Assembly: GCF_053078305.1 (NCBI RefSeq)
Contig: NZ_CP166879.1
DNA: 64,000 bases
Reading direction: 5' to 3' (one strand)
A program made the translations under genes and the position numbers. Under the pieces are notes generated by a model. It was not told where the DNA came from. It made no database searches and saw only the letters and a program-made list of their open reading frames with translations. Each line of letters begins with the position of its first letter. The first letter of the stretch is position 1. Shown here in pieces: positions 4,015 to 33,023 of the stretch.

Positions 4015-6810
4015 ATGGAGATAATTATGAGAAACCTCTGTTTCTTACTGACGTTAGTGGCAACTCTGTTGTTCCCCGGGCGGCTGATTGCCGCCGCCTT
4101 ACCGCAGGATGAAAAGTTAATTACCGGGCAACTGGACAATGGCTTGCGATATATGATTTATCCGCATGCTCATCCAAAGGATCAGGTAAATTTATGGCTG
4201 CAAATTCATACCGGTTCATTGCAGGAAGAAGACAATGAGCGCGGCGTGGCTCATTTTGTAGAACATATGATGTTTAACGGCACAAAAACATGGCCGGGTA
4301 ATAAAGTCATCGAAACATTTGAGTTAATGGGCCTGCGTTTTGGTCGCGATGTTAATGCCTATACCAGCTATGACGAAACGGTGTATCAGGTGAGTTTGCC
4401 AACTACGCAGAAACAAAATCTGCAACAAGTGATGGCAATCTTCAGTGAATGGAGTAATGCCGCAACCTTTGAAAAACTCGAAGTAGACGCTGAACGCGGC
4501 GTAATTACTGAGGAATGGCGTGCCCATCAGGATGCGAAATGGCGCACCTCTCAGGCGCGCCGCCCTTTCCTGCTGGCTAATACCCGTAATTTAGACCGTG
4601 AACCTATCGGCCTGATGGATACTGTCGCCACGGTCACACCGGCACAATTGCGCCAATTTTATCAACGCTGGTATCAACCAAATAATATGACCTTTATCGT
4701 GGTTGGCGATATCGACAGTAAAGAAGCGCTGGCGCTGATAAAGGATAATTTAAGTAAGCTTCCGGCTAACAAAGCAGCTGAAAATCGCGTCTGGCCGACA
4801 AAAGCCGAAAACCACCTGCGCTTTAATATCATTAATGATAAAGAAAACCGGGTGAACGGCATCGCACTCTATTATCGCCTGCCAATGGTACAAGTGAACG
4901 ATGAGCAAAGCTTTATCGAACAAGCTGAATGGAGCATGTTAGTTCAGCTGTTCAATCAACGTCTGCAGGAACGTATACAGTCGGGCGAGTTGAAGACTAT
5001 TTCTGGCGGCACTGCGCGCAGCGTTAGAATTGCACCCGATTATCAGTCGCTGTTTTTCCGTGTAAATGCACGAGACGATAATATGCAGGATGCTGCGAAT
5101 GCATTAATGGCAGAGTTGGCAACCATTGATCAGCATGGTTTTTCTGCTGAAGAACTCGATGATGTCAAATCTACCCGCCTCACCTGGCTGAAAAATGCGG
5201 TTGATCAGCAAGCTGAACGTGATTTACGTATGCTGACCAGTCGCCTGGCATCCAGCTCATTAAATAATACGCCGTTCTTGTCGCCGGAAGAGACATATCA
5301 ACTTTCGAAACGTCTGTGGCAGCAAATTACCGTGCAAAGTCTGGCGGAAAAATGGCAGCAGTTAAGAAAGAACCAGGACGCATTTTGGGAGCAAATGGTA
5401 AACAATGAGCTTGCCGCAAAAAAAGCATTGTCTCCTGCGGCTATCCTGGCGCTGGAAAAAGAGTACGCCAACAAAAAGCTGGCGGCTTACATCTTCCCAG
5501 GCAGAAATTTATCGTTAACAGTAGACGCTGACCCACAGGCGGAAATTAGCAGCAAAGAAACGCTGGCTGAGAATCTGACATCATTAACACTTTCCAATGG
5601 TGCCAGGGTTATTCTGGCAAAATCCGCGGGTGAAGAGCAAAAACTACAAATTATTGCCGTATCGAATAAAGGCGATTTAAGTTTCCCTGCGCAGCAAAAA
5701 TCACTTATCGCGCTGGCAAATAAAGCAGTTAGCGGAAGCGGCGTTGGCGAACTCTCCTCTTCCAGCCTGAAACGCTGGAGTGCGGAAAACTCGGTAACCA
5801 TGAGCAGTAAAGTCAGTGGCATGAATACGTTGCTCTCCGTTAGCGCGCGGACTAATAACCCTGAACCTGGTTTTCAGTTGATTAACCAGCGAATCACCCA
5901 CAGCACGATTAACGACAATATTTGGGCATCGCTACAAAATGCTCAAATTCAGGCGTTGAAAACGCTCGACCAGCGTCCAGCGGAGAAATTCGCCCAGCAG
6001 ATGTATGAGACGCGCTATGCTGATGACCGCACGAAATTACTGCAAGAAAATCAGATTGCACAGTTTACTGCCGCAGATGCGCTGGCTGCCGATCGCCAGT
6101 TGTTTTCATCTCCAGCGGATATCACGTTTGTCATTGTCGGTAATGTCGCAGAAGACAAACTCGTGGCGTTAATTACGCGTTACTTAGGATCAATCAAACA
6201 CTCTGATTCGCCATTAGCCGCAGGTAAACCATTAACTCGCGCGACGGACAACGCATCGGTTACTGTAAAGGAACAAAATGAACCTGTGGCACAGGTTTCA
6301 CAGTGGAAGCGTTATGATTCCCGGACACCTGTTAATCTGGCGACGCGTATGGCGCTCGATGCTTTTAACGTCGCACTGGCAAAAGATCTACGCGTTAATA
6401 TTCGTGAACAGGCATCTGGGGCATACAGCGTTTCTTCTCGCCTCTCGGTTGATCCTCAGGCCAAAGATATCAGTCATTTGCTGGCTTTTACTTGTCAACC
6501 AGAACGACATGATGAACTGTTAACGTTAGCGAATGAAGTGATGGTTAAGCGTCTGGCTAAAGGGATCAGTGAGCAAGAACTGAATGAATACCAGCAAAAC
6601 GTTCAGCGCAGCCTCGATATCCAACAGCGTAGCGTTCAACAATTAGCGAACACTATTGTAAATAGTCTTATTCAATATGACGATCCTGCAGCATGGACTG
6701 AGCAGGAGCAATTGTTGAAACAAATGACGGTAGAGAATGTTAACACTGCCGTTAAACAATATCTTTCTCATCCGGTAAATACTTATACTGGAGTATTATT
6801 GCCAAAATAA
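4015..6810 (+). CDS. pqqL: Periplasmic M16-family zinc metallopeptidase
   Basis: 931 aa, signal peptide, inverted zinc-binding motif HFVEHMMFNG; start could be the downstream Met (MRNLCF). Confidence 0.88.
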   Translation: MEIIMRNLCFLLTLVATLLFPGRLIAAALPQDEKLITGQLDNGLRYMIYPHAHPKDQVNLWLQIHTGSLQEEDNERGVAHFVEHMMFNGTKTWPGNKVIETFELMGLRFGRDVNAYTSYDETVYQVSLPTTQKQNLQQVMAIFSEWSNAATFEKLEVDAERGVITEEWRAHQDAKWRTSQARRPFLLANTRNLDREPIGLMDTVATVTPAQLRQFYQRWYQPNNMTFIVVGDIDSKEALALIKDNLSKLPANKAAENRVWPTKAENHLRFNIINDKENRVNGIALYYRLPMVQVNDEQSFIEQAEWSMLVQLFNQRLQERIQSGELKTISGGTARSVRIAPDYQSLFFRVNARDDNMQDAANALMAELATIDQHGFSAEELDDVKSTRLTWLKNAVDQQAERDLRMLTSRLASSSLNNTPFLSPEETYQLSKRLWQQITVQSLAEKWQQLRKNQDAFWEQMVNNELAAKKALSPAAILALEKEYANKKLAAYIFPGRNLSLTVDADPQAEISSKETLAENLTSLTLSNGARVILAKSAGEEQKLQIIAVSNKGDLSFPAQQKSLIALANKAVSGSGVGELSSSSLKRWSAENSVTMSSKVSGMNTLLSVSARTNNPEPGFQLINQRITHSTINDNIWASLQNAQIQALKTLDQRPAEKFAQQMYETRYADDRTKLLQENQIAQFTAADALAADRQLFSSPADITFVIVGNVAEDKLVALITRYLGSIKHSDSPLAAGKPLTRATDNASVTVKEQNEPVAQVSQWKRYDSRTPVNLATRMALDAFNVALAKDLRVNIREQASGAYSVSSRLSVDPQAKDISHLLAFTCQPERHDELLTLANEVMVKRLAKGISEQELNEYQQNVQRSLDIQQRSVQQLANTIVNSLIQYDDPAAWTEQEQLLKQMTVENVNTAVKQYLSHPVNTYTGVLLPK

Positions 6811-6816
6811 TAACAG

Positions 6817-6847
6817 CCCCGTCAACACATCGTTGGCGGGGATTTTA
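6817..6847 (+). terminator. Rho-independent terminator after pqqL
   Basis: Hairpin ccccgtcaac/gttggcgggg (one G-U pair) followed by a T-rich tail. Confidence 0.6.
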
Positions 6848-7072
6848 GCAATATTCGCTATTTTTATGTAATAATTTTATAAATGCGTTCAAAATAATAA
6901 CCAAGTACTAATAGTGATATTTTAAGGTCTGATTTTTACGTGATAATTCAGGAGGCACAGAAAGCGCATAAAAATAACAACATAAAACACCTTACCACCA
7001 CCCAAGAATTCTCTATTGCATTGTTTTTTAATGAAAAAATATTATTTCAACAATATCTCACGATAAATAACA

Positions 7073-7092
7073 TTAGGATTTTGTTATTTAAA
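7073..7092 (+). promoter_or_regulatory. GAD box (GadE/GadX-type activator site) in the gadB promoter
   Basis: Exact 20-mer TTAGGATTTTGTTATTTAAA about 80 bp upstream of the gadB ATG, inside an AT-rich leader. Confidence 0.75.
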
Positions 7093-7171
7093 CACGAGTC
7101 CTTTGCACTTGCTTACTTTATCGATAAATCCTACTTTTTTAATGCGATCCAATCATTTTAAGGAGTTTAAA

Positions 7172-8572
7172 ATGGATAAGAAGCAAGTAACGGATTTAAG
7201 GTCGGAACTACTCGATTCACGTTTTGGTGCGAAGTCTATTTCCACTATCGCAGAATCAAAACGTTTTCCGCTGCACGAAATGCGCGACGATGTCGCATTT
7301 CAGATTATCAATGACGAATTATATCTTGATGGCAACGCTCGTCAGAACCTGGCCACTTTCTGCCAGACCTGGGACGACGAAAATGTCCACAAGTTGATGG
7401 ATTTATCCATTAACAAAAACTGGATCGACAAAGAAGAATATCCGCAATCCGCAGCCATCGACCTGCGTTGCGTAAATATGGTTGCCGATCTGTGGCATGC
7501 GCCTGCGCCGAAAAATGGTCAGGCCGTTGGCACCAACACCATTGGTTCTTCCGAGGCCTGTATGCTCGGCGGGATGGCGATGAAATGGCGTTGGCGCAAG
7601 CGTATGGAAGCTGCAGGCAAACCAACGGATAAACCAAACCTGGTGTGCGGCCCGGTGCAAATCTGCTGGCATAAATTCGCCCGCTACTGGGATGTGGAGC
7701 TGCGTGAGATCCCTATGCGCCCCGGTCAGTTGTTTATGGATCCGAAACGCATGATTGAAGCCTGCGACGAAAATACCATCGGCGTGGTGCCGACTTTCGG
7801 CGTGACCTACACCGGTAACTATGAGTTCCCGCAACCGCTGCACGATGCGCTGGATAAATTCCAGGCCGACACCGGTATCGACATCGACATGCACATCGAC
7901 GCCGCCAGTGGTGGCTTCCTGGCACCGTTCGTCGCCCCGGATATCGTCTGGGACTTCCGCCTGCCACGTGTGAAATCGATCAGTGCTTCAGGCCATAAAT
8001 TCGGTCTGGCTCCGCTGGGCTGCGGCTGGGTTATCTGGCGTGACGAAGAAGCGCTGCCGCAGGAACTGGTGTTCAACGTTGACTACCTGGGGGGTCAGAT
8101 TGGTACTTTCGCCATCAACTTCTCCCGCCCGGCGGGTCAGGTAATTGCACAGTACTATGAATTCCTGCGCCTCGGTCGTGAAGGCTACACCAAAGTACAG
8201 AACGCCTCTTACCAGGTTGCCGCTTATCTGGCGGATGAAATCGCCAAACTGGGGCCGTATGAGTTCATCTGTACCGGTCGCCCGGACGAAGGCATTCCGG
8301 CGGTTTGCTTCAAACTCAAAGATGGTGAAGATCCGGGATACACCCTGTACGACCTCTCTGAACGTCTGCGTCTGCGCGGCTGGCAGGTTCCGGCCTTCAC
8401 TCTCGGCGGTGAAGCCACCGACATCGTGGTGATGCGCATTATGTGTCGTCGCGGCTTCGAAATGGACTTTGCTGAACTGTTGCTGGAAGACTACAAAGCC
8501 TCCCTGAAATATCTCAGCGATCACCCGAAACTGCAGGGTATTGCCCAACAGAACAGCTTTAAACATACCTGA
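7172..8572 (+). CDS. gadB: Glutamate decarboxylase beta (PLP-dependent)
   Basis: 466 aa starting [22 protein letters not shown]-lysine context [10 protein letters not shown]; the ORF-track start at 7103 is an upstream in-frame extension. Confidence 0.95.
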
Positions 8573-8592
8573 TAACGTTTAACGGTAACGGT

Positions 8593-8618
8593 GTCCCGAA
8601 ACGAACCCGTTTCGGGAC
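8593..8618 (+). other. Perfect 11-bp inverted repeat (stem-loop) in the gadB-gadC intergenic region
   Basis: gtcccgaaacg aacc cgtttcgggac read directly from the sequence; no T-tract follows. Confidence 0.6.
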
Positions 8619-8727
8619 AATTTCCAAAGTCTGTTCACTGGCATTAGCAACGGAAAATATTGTTCTGAATACGCTTCAGAACAAAACAGGTGCGGTTCCG
8701 ACAGGAATACCGTTTTAGGGGGATAAT

Positions 8728-10263
8728 ATGGCTACATCAGTACAGACAGGTAAAGCTAAGCAGCTCACATTACTCGGCTTTTTTGCCATAACGGCATCGA
8801 TGGTAATGGCTGTTTATGAATACCCTACCTTCGCAACATCGGGCTTTTCATTAGTCTTCTTCCTGCTATTAGGCGGGATTTTATGGTTTATTCCCGTGGG
8901 ACTTTGTGCTGCGGAAATGGCCACCGTCGACGGCTGGGAAGAAGGTGGTGTCTTCGCCTGGGTATCAAATACTCTGGGGCCGAGATGGGGATTTGCAGCG
9001 ATCTCATTTGGCTATCTGCAAATCGCCATTGGTTTTATTCCGATGCTCTATTTCGTGTTAGGGGCACTCTCCTACATCCTGAAATGGCCAGCGCTGAATG
9101 AAGACCCCATTACCAAAACTATTGCAGCACTCATCATTCTTTGGGCGCTGGCATTAACGCAGTTTGGTGGCACGAAATACACGGCGCGAATTGCTAAAGT
9201 TGGCTTCTTCGCCGGCATCCTGTTACCTGCATTTATTTTGATTGCATTAGCGGCTATTTATCTGCACTCCGGTGCCCCCGTTGCTATCGAAATGGATTCG
9301 AAGACCTTCTTCCCTGACTTCTCTAAAGTGGGCACCCTGGTAGTATTTGTTGCCTTCATTTTGAGTTATATGGGCGTAGAAGCATCCGCAACCCACGTCA
9401 ATGAAATGAGCAACCCAGGGCGCGACTATCCACTGGCTATGTTACTGCTGATGGTGGCGGCAATCTGCTTAAGCTCTGTTGGTGGTTTGTCTATTGCGAT
9501 GGTCATTCCGGGTAATGAAATCAACCTCTCCGCAGGGGTAATGCAAACCTTTACCGTTCTGATGTCTCATGTGGCACCGGAAATTGAGTGGACGGTTCGC
9601 GTGATCTCCGCACTGCTGTTGCTGGGTGTTCTGGCGGAAATCGCCTCCTGGATTGTTGGTCCTTCTCGCGGGATGTATGTCACAGCGCAGAAAAACCTGC
9701 TGCCAGCGGCATTCGCTAAAATGAACAAAAATGGCGTACCGGTAACGCTGGTCATTTCGCAGCTGGTGATTACTTCTATCGCGTTGATCATCCTCACCAA
9801 TACCGGTGGCGGTAACAACATGTCCTTCCTGATCGCACTGGCGCTGACGGTGGTGATTTATCTGTGTGCTTATTTCATGCTGTTTATTGGCTACATTGTG
9901 TTGGTTCTTAAACATCCTGACTTAAAACGCACATTTAATATCCCTGGTGGTAAAGGGGTGAAACTGGTCGTGGCAATTGTCGGTCTGCTGACTTCAATTA
10001 TGGCGTTTATTGTTTCCTTCCTGCCGCCGGATAACATCCAGGGTGACTCTACCGATATGTATGTTGAATTACTGGTCGTTAGTTTCCTGGTGGTACTTGC
10101 CCTGCCCTTTATTCTCTATGCTGTTCATGATCGTAAAGGCAAAGCGAATACCGGCGTCACTCTGGAGCCAATCAACAGTCAGAACGCACCAAAAGGTCAC
10201 TTCTTCCTGCACCCGCGTGCACGTTCACCACACTATATTGTGATGAATGACAAGAAACACTAA
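8728..10263 (+). CDS. gadC: Glutamate:GABA antiporter (APC family)
   Basis: 511 aa polytopic membrane protein immediately downstream of gadB. Confidence 0.95.
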
Positions 10264-10286
10264 CCATGTCTGAATGGTTATAAGAT

Positions 10287-10316
10287 AAGGGAGCGATAAT
10301 TCATCGCTCCCTTTTT
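10287..10316 (+). terminator. Rho-independent terminator after gadC
   Basis: 11-bp perfect stem aagggagcgat/atcgctccctt with 5-nt loop, followed by TTT. Confidence 0.75.
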
Positions 10317-10393
10317 CGTGCTTGCTGTCGTATTGACTTAACCGGGATAAGTACGAGAATGAGCGCACATCTGTTTACCGGAAACCAGCACAT

Positions 10394-11713
10394 ATGGATA
10401 TCTGCTCCCGAAACGAGAAATTAGCGATTAGAAGACCAGCGATACTGGTTGCACTGGCACTTTTACTGTGTAGTTGTAAAAGCACGCCTCCAGAGTCCAT
10501 GGTGACACCACCAGCAGGTTCAAATCCACCAGCCACGACGCAACAATCGTCACAACCGATGCGTGGCATCTGGCTGGCCACGGTGTCTCGCCTCGACTGG
10601 CCACCGGTTTCCTCGGTTAACATTAGTAACCCCACCAGCCGGGCCCGTGTACAACAACAGGCGATGATCGACAAACTGGATCATCTGCAACGTCTCGGTA
10701 TAAACACGGTCTTTTTCCAGGTCAAGCCGGACGGTACCGCCCTGTGGCCTTCAAAAATTTTGCCGTGGTCCGATCTTATGACCGGTAAGATTGGTGAAAA
10801 TCCGGGTTACGATCCGCTGCAATTTATGCTCGACGAAGCCCACAAGCGTGGGATGAAAGTACACGCCTGGTTTAACCCCTATCGCGTATCGGTTAATACG
10901 AAGCCCGGTACTATCAGGGAACTGAATAGCACCCTGTCTCAACAACCGGCGAGCGTCTATGTGCAACACCGCGACTGGATCAGAACGTCCGGCGATCGCT
11001 TTGTCCTCGACCCGGGCATCCCTGAGGTTCAGGACTGGATCACATCAATAGTCGCAGAAGTGGTTTCCCGCTATCCGGTAGATGGCGTGCAGTTTGACGA
11101 CTATTTCTATACTGAGTCACCGGGTTCACGGCTAAATGATAACGAAACGTACCGCAAATACGGAGGCGCATTTGCGTCAAAAGCAGACTGGCGGCGCAAC
11201 AATACTCAGCAGTTAATTGCAAAGGTATCGCACACCATTAAAAGCATTAAGCCGGGAGTCGAATTTGGTGTTAGCCCGGCAGGCGTGTGGCGTAACCGAT
11301 CACACGATCCGCTCGGTTCCGATACCCGAGGCGCGGCAGCCTATGACGAATCCTACGCTGACACCCGTCGATGGGTGGAACAAGGATTGCTGGATTACAT
11401 TGCTCCCCAAATTTACTGGCCGTTCTCACGGAGTGCCGCGCGTTATGACGTGTTGGCAAAATGGTGGGCGGATGTCGTTAAACCGACCAGGACCCGCCTG
11501 TATATCGGTATCGCCTTCTATAAAGTGGGTGAACCTTCAAAGATAGAGCCAGACTGGATGATTAACGGCGGCGTACCGGAACTGAAAAAGCAGCTCGATC
11601 TTAACGATGCGGTACCCGAAATTAGCGGCACCATCTTGTTCCGTGAGGACTATCTGAATAAACCGCAGACTCAACAAGCGGTCAGCTATCTGCAAAGTCG
11701 TTGGGGCAGTTAA
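10394..11713 (+). CDS. yddW: Lipoprotein, glycosyl hydrolase-like (GH10-like) family
   Basis: 439 aa with signal/lipobox-like N-terminus (LLLCSC); conserved position between gadC and dosC. Confidence 0.85.
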   Translation: MDICSRNEKLAIRRPAILVALALLLCSCKSTPPESMVTPPAGSNPPATTQQSSQPMRGIWLATVSRLDWPPVSSVNISNPTSRARVQQQAMIDKLDHLQRLGINTVFFQVKPDGTALWPSKILPWSDLMTGKIGENPGYDPLQFMLDEAHKRGMKVHAWFNPYRVSVNTKPGTIRELNSTLSQQPASVYVQHRDWIRTSGDRFVLDPGIPEVQDWITSIVAEVVSRYPVDGVQFDDYFYTESPGSRLNDNETYRKYGGAFASKADWRRNNTQQLIAKVSHTIKSIKPGVEFGVSPAGVWRNRSHDPLGSDTRGAAAYDESYADTRRWVEQGLLDYIAPQIYWPFSRSAARYDVLAKWWADVVKPTRTRLYIGIAFYKVGEPSKIEPDWMINGGVPELKKQLDLNDAVPEISGTILFREDYLNKPQTQQAVSYLQSRWGS

Positions 11714-23405: not shown

Positions 23406-23436
23406 TTCATAACCATCAGTCCTCAATGACGATTAA

Positions 23437-23470
23437 ACACCATTGCCTGCGCAATGGTGTTTTTGTTTTT
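23437..23470 (+). terminator. Rho-independent terminator after sra
   Basis: 10-bp perfect stem acaccattgc/gcaatggtgt, 4-nt loop, followed by TTTTGTTTTT. Confidence 0.85.
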
Positions 23471-26835: not shown

Positions 26836-27040
26836 AAATGGCACCTTATAAAGCGCCATTTGAAACTGATGACAAATGCAACATTGCCTGATGCGCTACG
26901 CTTATCAGGCCTACACGTTCACTGCAATCTATTGTATTTGAAGGGTTTTCATGCCGGATAAGGCATTCACGACGCATCCGGGATGAACAAAGCCCACGTT
27001 GTCTACAATATGAAAATGGCGCCTTTTACAGCGCCATTTT
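26836..27040. repeat. REP/BIME cluster flanked by two near-identical hairpins (bidirectional terminator region)
   Basis: REP-like units GCCTGATGCGCTACGCTTATCAGGCCTAC and TGCCGGATAAGGCATTCACGACGCATCCGG; hairpins around aaatggc(g)c...gcgccattt at both ends. Confidence 0.75.
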
Positions 27041-27061
27041 CAGCTTAAAGTTCAATAGAGA

Positions 27062-31883: not shown

Positions 31884-32765
31884 ATGACACGACAAAAAGC
31901 AACGCTCATAGGGCTAATAGCGATCGTCCTGTGGAGCACGATGGTAGGATTGATTCGCGGTGTCAGCGAGGGGCTCGGCCCGGTCAGCGGCGCAGCTGCT
32001 ATCTATTCATTAAGCGGGCTGCTGTTAATCTTCACGGTTGGATTTCCGCGTATTCGGCAAATCCCGAAAGGCTATTTACTCGCCGGGAGTCTGTTATTCG
32101 TCAGCTATGAAATCTGTCTGGCGCTTTCCTTAGGGTATGCGGCGACCCGTCATCAGGCGATTGAAGTGGGTATGGTGAACTATCTGTGGCCCAGCCTGAC
32201 AATTCTCTTTGCCATTCTGTTTAATGGTCAGAAAACCAACTGGCTGATTGTACCAGGATTATTATTAGCCCTCGTCGGCGTCTGCTGGGTGTTAGGCGGT
32301 GACAATGGGTTACATTATGATGAAATCATCAATAATATCACCACCAGCCCATTGAGTTATTTCCTGGCGTTCATTGGTGCGTTTATCTGGGCAGCCTACT
32401 GCACAGTAACGAATAAATACGCACGCGGATTTAATGGAATTACCGTTTTTGTCCTGCTAACGGGAGCAAGTCTGTGGGTTTACTATTTTCTCACGCCACA
32501 ACCAGAAATGGTATTTAGCACGCCAGTCATGATTAAACTCATCTCTGCGGCATTTACCTTAGGATTTGCTTATGCTGCATGGAATGTCGGTATACTGCAT
32601 GGCAACGTCACCATAATGGCGGTAGGTTCGTATTTTACGCCCGTACTTTCCTCAGCGCTAGCAGCCGTGCTGCTCAGCGCCCCGCTGTCGTTCTCGTTCT
32701 GGCAAGGCGCGCTGATGGTCTGCGGCGGTTCCCTGCTCTGCTGGCTGGCGACACGTCGTGGCTAA
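31884..32765 (+). CDS. yddG: Aromatic amino acid exporter (DMT superfamily)
   Basis: 293 aa, ten predicted transmembrane segments; divergent from fdnG. Confidence 0.92.
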   Translation: MTRQKATLIGLIAIVLWSTMVGLIRGVSEGLGPVSGAAAIYSLSGLLLIFTVGFPRIRQIPKGYLLAGSLLFVSYEICLALSLGYAATRHQAIEVGMVNYLWPSLTILFAILFNGQKTNWLIVPGLLLALVGVCWVLGGDNGLHYDEIINNITTSPLSYFLAFIGAFIWAAYCTVTNKYARGFNGITVFVLLTGASLWVYYFLTPQPEMVFSTPVMIKLISAAFTLGFAYAAWNVGILHGNVTIMAVGSYFTPVLSSALAAVLLSAPLSFSFWQGALMVCGGSLLCWLATRRG

Positions 32766-32768
32766 AAT

Positions 32769-32795
32769 AATTGCCGGGTCTACGGCCCGGCAATT
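32769..32795 (+). terminator. Hairpin after yddG
   Basis: aattgccgggtc / ggcccggcaatt 12-bp stem with one wobble pair; weak T-tract. Confidence 0.5.
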
Positions 32796-33023
32796 AATCA
32801 GATAAACTCCGACAATATTAAAAAATAAATTTCAAATACCAGTAATTCACCTTATATCTCATTTCGACTTCGATCACATATCGATAAATAATATTATTTC
32901 ATCTATTTTTCTCATTGTTTTTAATCACCATTCTAATTTAAAAACAGTATGTCATTTATAAATGACGCCGTTTAAAATTCGTTTAGAAAATACGTTTAAC
33001 GATAATTAAAAGGATTCTGTTAA

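Follow-up and report, generated by a model that had tools for sequence, protein, structure and literature searches.

The spacer between gadB and gadC in E. coli O157:H7 contains a perfect 12-bp RNA hairpin just behind the gadB stop codon, and RNA 3' ends have been mapped in vivo immediately downstream of it. Both the compensatory changes in its stem and the recurrence of unrelated hairpins at the same site in other genera point to a function at the level of the RNA. We propose that the hairpin is an element of the sense gadBC transcript, and that it serves as a barrier to 3' exonucleases which defines and stabilises the end of a gadB-only mRNA inside the operon; we give this reading about an even chance. 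The element itself is real, under selection and functionally plausible.

The gadB-gadC junction and its hairpin

All positions given without further qualification refer to the window, i.e., the whole stretch of 64,000 nt that was analysed. Its gadB and gadC region is that of E. coli O157:H7, with a match of 100% to strain TR01. The features of the junction are as follows.

7172..8572, + strand: gadB coding sequence (466 aa); the translation gives the N-terminus and the length, and the gene is gadB in the RefSeq annotation of identical genomes.
8592..8603, + strand: 5' arm of the hairpin, UGUCCCGAAACG; 100% complementary to 8608-8619, and paired in both the MFE and the centroid folds.
8604..8607, + strand: hairpin loop, AACC; the main polymorphic spot in E. 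coli (AAGC, CACC), as seen in an alignment of 12 Escherichia sequences and in two additional variant sequences.
8608..8619, + strand: 3' arm of the hairpin, CGUUUCGGGACA; paired with the 5' arm, with double-sided changes at three pairs in E. albertii.
8717..8730, + strand: gadC Shine-Dalgarno sequence AGGGGGA (8717-8723) and start codon ATG (8728-8730), read off the sequence.
8728..10263, + strand: gadC coding sequence (511 aa), downstream partner of gadB in the operon, from the list of open reading frames and the RefSeq annotation of identical genomes.

The gadB stop codon TGA (8570-8572) is followed by an in-frame TAA (8573-8575), and the spacer between the two genes is 155 nt long. The counterparts in K-12 MG1655 are gadB at 1570645-1572045(-) and gadC at 1568954-1570489(-); with these gene coordinates as anchors, a K-12 position equals 1579217 minus the window position. 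Homology with the gadA paralog stops near 8576, about 4 nt past the gadB stop codon (the match covers query positions 1-77), and the hairpin is therefore specific to the gadB locus. In the spacer, a search for a gadC promoter found just a weak 9/12 match that overlaps the Shine-Dalgarno sequence and occurs at chance frequency.

An earlier, sequence-only reading of this DNA had described a perfect 11-bp palindrome around the loop AACC at 8593-8618, and the sequence is present exactly as described. Pairing gains one further U-A pair, so that the perfect stem has 12 bp (8592-8603 with 8608-8619) and the loop 4 nt. The same reading had placed the hairpin 20 nt after the gadB stop codon and had stated that no U-tract follows; the stem indeed starts at 8592, 20 nt past the TGA, and the tail AUUUCCAAAG has only 3 U in its first 8 nt. 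The predicted energy is -19.9 kcal/mol, with 7 G-C pairs among the 12. With a first-order Markov model as the null, the expected number of perfect hairpins with 12 bp or more and a loop of 3-8 nt is 0.04 per 64 kb; there are three in the window, the other two of which resemble ordinary terminators, and a 12-bp stem is far beyond chance. The whole spacer, moreover, folds better than 200 of 200 shuffles (z = -4.05). An additional helix in the single-sequence MFE fold, in which AUUUCC (8620-8625) would act as an anti-Shine-Dalgarno sequence by pairing with the gadC Shine-Dalgarno region (8718-8724), was rejected, as it is gone in the consensus fold of the alignment and shows no covariation.

An Rfam scan of 6800-10600, with E-values up to 10, gave nothing overlapping 8573-8727. 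The hairpin is single-copy, at one locus per genome: the number of places per genome has a median of 1 for a 68-nt query, and the 2 hits of a 34-nt query are most likely the palindrome matching both strands at one locus. Because the element is single-copy in each genome it is not REP-like, and a REP/BIME or other dispersed palindromic repeat was rejected on this ground, together with a half-site count in the window that is at chance level.

RNA 3' ends mapped next to the hairpin

Transcript end mapping had been named as the check on the hairpin, with the absence of 3' ends at this position as the outcome that would speak against it. Two independent published K-12 data sets, Adams 2021 and TRS 2023, have 3' ends here, 4-6 nt after the stem. 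The end zone, and the terminator at the end of the operon which served as an internal positive control, are the following.

8619..8629, + strand: zone of mapped RNA 3' ends, with the tail AUUUCCAAAG; the Adams end is U8623, and the TRS cluster covers 8619-8629 with its peak at C8625.
10289..10317, + strand: canonical intrinsic terminator of the operon behind gadC, a perfect hairpin GGGAGCGAU-AAUUC-AUCGCUCCC followed by UUUUU; discriminant score +19.0, with mapped 3' ends.

The Term-seq data of Adams 2021 (PMC7815308, Supplementary file 1, sheet M63 0.4; M63 glucose) include a 3' end at 1570594(-); its count averages 33,816.8, and the printed context is TAACG...CGTTTCGGGACAATT[T]CCAAAGTCTG. This position corresponds to U8623 of the window, 4 nt past the last paired base. 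On the same sheet, the count at the gadC terminator end, 1568900(-), is 70,553.1 (PMC7815308), so that the count after the gadB hairpin is about half of that at the terminator. The end at 1570594(-) is classed as 'orphan' by Adams 2021 (PMC7815308) because it lies 51 nt past the gadB stop codon and the limit for 'primary' is 50. In TRS 2023 (PMC10687069, Supplementary Data 2), which is based on re-analysed data sets, a cluster at 1570588-1570598 has its peak at 1570592, i.e., window position 8625, and is labelled 'Alternative primary in TU' of gadB. The gadC terminator is likewise represented in both sources, by the Term-seq end 1568900(-) (PMC7815308), which is window position 10317, and by 'Primary gadC' at 1568896 in TRS (PMC10687069). 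The gadB 3' end is thus already in two genome-wide catalogues.

In Adams 2021, 1570594(-) appears in the M63 sheet only and is absent from both LB sheets (PMC7815308). The Rho data of that study come from LB exponential phase only (PMC7815308), and they are uninformative for this locus because gadBC is off in that phase. The SMRT-Cappable-seq supplements had no gadB entry. In the literature searched on stem-loops of gadB and gadC, their intergenic region, terminators and 3'-end mapping, no dedicated study of the hairpin was found. Smith 1992, De Biase 1999, Tramonti 2002/2006 and Waterman and Small 2003 reportedly describe a gadA/gadB band of about 1.4-1.6 kb and a gadBC band of about 3 kb.

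Conservation within Escherichia

Of 5,406 E. coli genomes, 3,600 carry the 34-nt element unchanged; 1,395 show one difference from it, and 411 show two or three. In all eight variant genomes that were fetched (8/8), every change falls in the loop, in the loop-closing pair, or at base 8591, which is not part of the stem. The types of variant are AACC to AAGC or CACC in the loop, G to A in the loop-closing pair, and a change at 8591.

Twelve sequences were used for the Escherichia alignment. The helix is kept in E. albertii with three pairs changed on both sides, one from U-A to C-G and two from A-U to G-C, along with one G-U wobble and one mismatch in the stem. A single G-U wobble and a different loop are found in 'E. 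coli' E69, a separate species representative in the genome collection, while the Escherichia genome MOD1-EC7003 carries two stem-weakening substitutions. The G-U wobbles of E69 and E. albertii keep pairing on the sense-strand RNA only. Over the alignment, 3 of the 12 pairs have double-sided changes, all of them in E. albertii, and pairing holds in 93.8% of cells. Of 500 shuffles, 5 reached the covariation score; the covariation is real, but it is modest evidence, as it comes from a single lineage.

By manual count from the alignment, about one-third of the hairpin positions differ between E. coli and E. albertii, as against about 9% in the remaining spacer. The hairpin sequence thus turns over fast, faster than its flanks, while the pairing persists. 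The run of U after the stem also varies within Escherichia (AAUUUCC, AAAUUCC, AAACUCC, AAUUCC), with the stem kept, i.e., the U-tract is not conserved. These patterns indicate that the stem is under structural selection.

The spacer is missing from about 21 of 5,426 E. coli genomes. Matches on plasmid-typed records are also found, at 5 places with the 68-nt and 301-nt queries and at 9 with the 34-nt query.

Hairpins at gadB-gadC junctions of other genera

A scan anchored on the GadC protein gave 80 loci; gadB was located upstream of gadC in most of them, and the spacers were extracted. The set of 58 spacers of at least 60 nt consists of 57 of these loci and the window itself. A single strong hairpin (-12 kcal/mol or better) is present in 56 of the 58. 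The spacer hairpins average -19.5 kcal/mol and those of dinucleotide-shuffled controls -10.6 kcal/mol; in 51 of 58 spacers, the native sequence is better than each of its six shuffles (6/6), figures in which the controls are slightly understated since the shuffles were scanned at a coarser length step. The hairpin starts at a median of 17.5 nt past the gadB stop codon, and in 80% of cases it is found in the first half of the spacer; the offset of about 17.5 nt would place it just beyond the footprint of the terminating ribosome.

From one genus to another the hairpins are unrelated in sequence. Their recurrence at one position in nearly all junctions argues for selection and, together with the compensatory changes in Escherichia, for a function at the RNA level. 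Most of these orthologous hairpins have no U-tract. At least 5 T in the 8 nt after the hairpin are found in only 8 of 56, and the terminator discriminant is passed by only 4 of 55, which is a lower bound as some of the windows held weak outer pairs. Cases with a clear U-tract behind the equivalent hairpin include Yersinia rohdei (L009), Serratia (L013), Citrobacter sp. (L039), the locus L056, and Comamonas (L058).

The two proteins of the pair differ in their degree of divergence. At loci L008-L073, from other Proteobacteria, GadC shares 70-81% identity with the Escherichia protein, and the neighbouring GadB shares only 51-64% with its Escherichia counterpart (tblastn). Such unequal divergence could reflect a different origin, or a replacement, of the Escherichia decarboxylase gene.

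Other hairpins

The spacer contains one more perfect hairpin.

8660..8684, + strand: second, AU-rich perfect hairpin in the gadC 5' leader, UUGUUCUGAA-UACGC-UUCAGAACAA; 10 bp, -10.2 kcal/mol.

It is less well kept than the hairpin behind gadB, with two mismatches in E. albertii and zero double-sided changes. On the minus strand, with UAUUUUCC behind it, it has the appearance of a terminator; no antisense 3' end near 8660-8684 is listed in Adams et al. (PMC7815308).

The gadA gene of K-12 (L088, 3665700-3666300, minus strand) has a hairpin of its own about 20 nt past the stop codon and before gadX, unrelated to that of gadB. It is a perfect 13-bp stem, CCGAAUGCCCAGC...GCUGGGCAUUCGG, with an A-rich loop of 13 nt and the tail UUGCUUAUU; the tables of Adams et al. 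have no 3' end near it (PMC7815308). Both decarboxylase genes thus have a strong hairpin after the stop codon and before the next co-oriented gene, gadX or gadC.

Elsewhere in the window, a perfect 11-bp hairpin without a U-tract, UAAUUGCCGGG-UCUACGG-CCCGGCAAUUA (32768-32796), begins 3 nt past the stop of the open reading frame 31884-32765 and precedes a co-oriented open reading frame at 33024. It may be the same kind of end-forming structure within an operon. Of two further perfect 12-bp hairpins, the one at 23435-23462, with UUGUUUUU behind it, resembles an intrinsic terminator, and the one at 27011-27042, flanked by A-rich and U-rich sequence, resembles a bidirectional terminator.

Barrier, terminator, by-product or protein-binding site

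The hairpin has one of the two hallmarks of an intrinsic terminator, a stable G+C-rich stem-loop (12 bp perfect, 7 G-C, -19.9 kcal/mol), and does not have the other, a U-rich tract of about 7-8 nt right after the stem (3 U in 8 nt). It was not called in a simple terminator scan. A discriminant of the d'Aubenton-Carafa type, for which the energies were taken from ViennaRNA, gave -21 for the gadB hairpin and +19.0 for the gadC terminator. With regard to Rho, the 108 nt behind the stem contain 20 C and 25 G and are not C-rich and G-poor; in view of this lack of C-over-G bias, a Rho loading site directly behind the hairpin is not evident. The hallmark of a protective stem-loop, a steady-state 3' end just past a stable stem-loop without a U-tract, is present, with the ends at window positions 8623 and 8625.

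Several observations would nevertheless suit a leaky, non-canonical intrinsic terminator or attenuator, at which polymerase stops at AUUU in some rounds of transcription, possibly aided by NusA or NusG, so that the gadB:gadC ratio is set transcriptionally. The stem is strong and its base is G+C-rich, three U lie within 5 nt of it, and the 3' ends fall 5-7 nt after C8618, similar to the 6-10 nt of the gadC terminator. True U-tracts in several genera would mean that termination at this junction is tolerated or used, and such elements can switch type through the gain or loss of U (Dar and Sorek 2018, PMC6061677). Against this stand the failed terminator scan and the discriminant of -21, a U run that varies within Escherichia while the stem is kept, and terminator-like tails in only 4-8 of about 55 orthologous hairpins. 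We therefore treat a leaky terminator as the main rival to the barrier, possible but less likely. The exonuclease barrier is preferred to it because the tail scores far below that of a terminator (-21 vs +19), because conservation extends to the stem but not to the U run, and because most orthologous hairpins are without U-tracts.

It might also be argued that the hairpin is a by-product of no regulatory consequence, such as the relic terminator of a once monocistronic gadB, and that the ends are decay intermediates piling up at a stable structure. What maps of 3' ends record is steady-state ends and not function. Of three Adams conditions, only one gave a call for this end, and the unrelated 13-bp hairpin after the gadA stop codon has no 3' end in the Adams tables. 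Against a by-product stand the preservation of the stem in all sampled E. coli variants, the compensatory nature of its changes in E. albertii, and the recurrence of unrelated hairpins at the equivalent position in nearly all junctions, which argues for selection; we consider a by-product unlikely. The sequence-only reading had also raised the possibility of a protein-binding site, and many operators are indeed built like this perfect 12-4-12 inverted repeat. If the palindrome were the DNA target of a dimeric protein, be it an operator or a site for a nucleoid protein, its half-site would be expected to be kept, but here it is the pairing that is conserved and the half-site sequence that is not: three pairs are changed on both sides in E. 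albertii, and other genera have wholly different sequences. The G-U wobbles of E69 and E. albertii maintain pairing in the sense RNA and not the symmetry of the DNA, the location is past a stop codon within an operon and not at a promoter, and the rest of the window holds no significant excess of the half-site. This alternative is disfavoured, and we regard it as highly improbable.

Proposed role of the hairpin

The other suggestion of the sequence-only reading, a 3' structure or attenuator that makes a gadB-only RNA end, gains support from the two 3'-end maps, the compensatory changes and the hairpins of other genera. For the preferred exonuclease barrier, we suggest the following sequence of events. 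RNA polymerase would mostly continue from gadB into gadC, and some of the transcripts would be cut or terminated downstream, within gadC or its AU-rich leader. Two 3'-to-5' exonucleases, PNPase and RNase II, would then trim these molecules back until they stall at the base of the 12-bp stem, leaving a protected gadB message that ends at about U8623-C8625. The upstream event could be an endonuclease cut that stands in for Rho termination. As downstream gadC sequence would be unprotected on those molecules, gadB mRNA would accumulate over gadC mRNA, and this would suit a need for much soluble decarboxylase and little membrane antiporter. The hairpin thus probably yields more gadB than gadC message and, by extension, may raise GadB relative to GadC.

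Several points argue against a barrier. The distance from stem to end is like that of a terminator, the downstream sequence has no C-over-G bias, the end was called in M63 only, the covariation comes from a single lineage, and the stem is weakened in MOD1-EC7003.

On a broader and more speculative view, which we think improbable, the post-gadB stem-loop would be a conserved design feature of gadB-gadC across the Proteobacteria, a tunable valve between enzyme and antiporter in which 3'-end formation responds to conditions (called in minimal glucose medium, uncalled in LB), and the stable gadB 3' fragment or the cleaved gadC leader might have an additional regulatory role.

Significance

GadB and GadC form the main mechanism of extreme-acid resistance in E. 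coli O157:H7 and related gut bacteria, and they are a source of bacterial GABA. A 3' end after gadB inside the operon means that the levels of gadB and gadC need not track each other despite one shared promoter. Such decoupling matters when transcriptomes are interpreted, reporters designed, or GABA production engineered. The hairpin is an ordinary member of a well-understood class and implies no new principle; given this, and given that its 3' end is already catalogued, the practical gain is one of annotation for the locus. A second gain is that an equivalent hairpin is present at nearly all of the gadB-gadC junctions examined.

Comparison with known systems

Hairpins that act as intercistronic stabilisers and bring about differential expression within an operon include the REP elements of E. 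coli malE-malF and the stem-loops of Rhodobacter capsulatus pufBA-pufLMX. The gadB hairpin resembles these in being a stable structure that separates a strongly expressed upstream gene from a more weakly expressed downstream gene for a membrane protein, and in that the upstream segment ends at the structure. Unlike the malE-malF REP elements, it is single-copy and of unrelated sequence.

In a genome-wide study of E. coli, stable stem-loops without a U-tract were found to define steady-state 3' ends and to shield transcripts from PNPase and RNase II (Dar and Sorek 2018, NAR, PMC6061677). The gadB hairpin shares with this class an energy like that of a terminator hairpin, the absence of a U-rich tract, and a precise 3' end immediately downstream. 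The class was, however, defined at the ends of Rho-dependent transcription units, whereas the gadB hairpin lies within an operon, 109 nt before the next start codon. The mild enrichment of C over G downstream that is seen in the class is also absent from the gadB hairpin.

With a canonical intrinsic terminator, here represented by that of gadC (10289-10317), the gadB hairpin has in common a G+C-rich stem-loop and a mapped 3' end a few nucleotides after it. It differs in being without the U-tract of 7-8 nt and in its score (-21 vs +19), and in that the gene downstream of it, gadC, must be, and is, co-transcribed.
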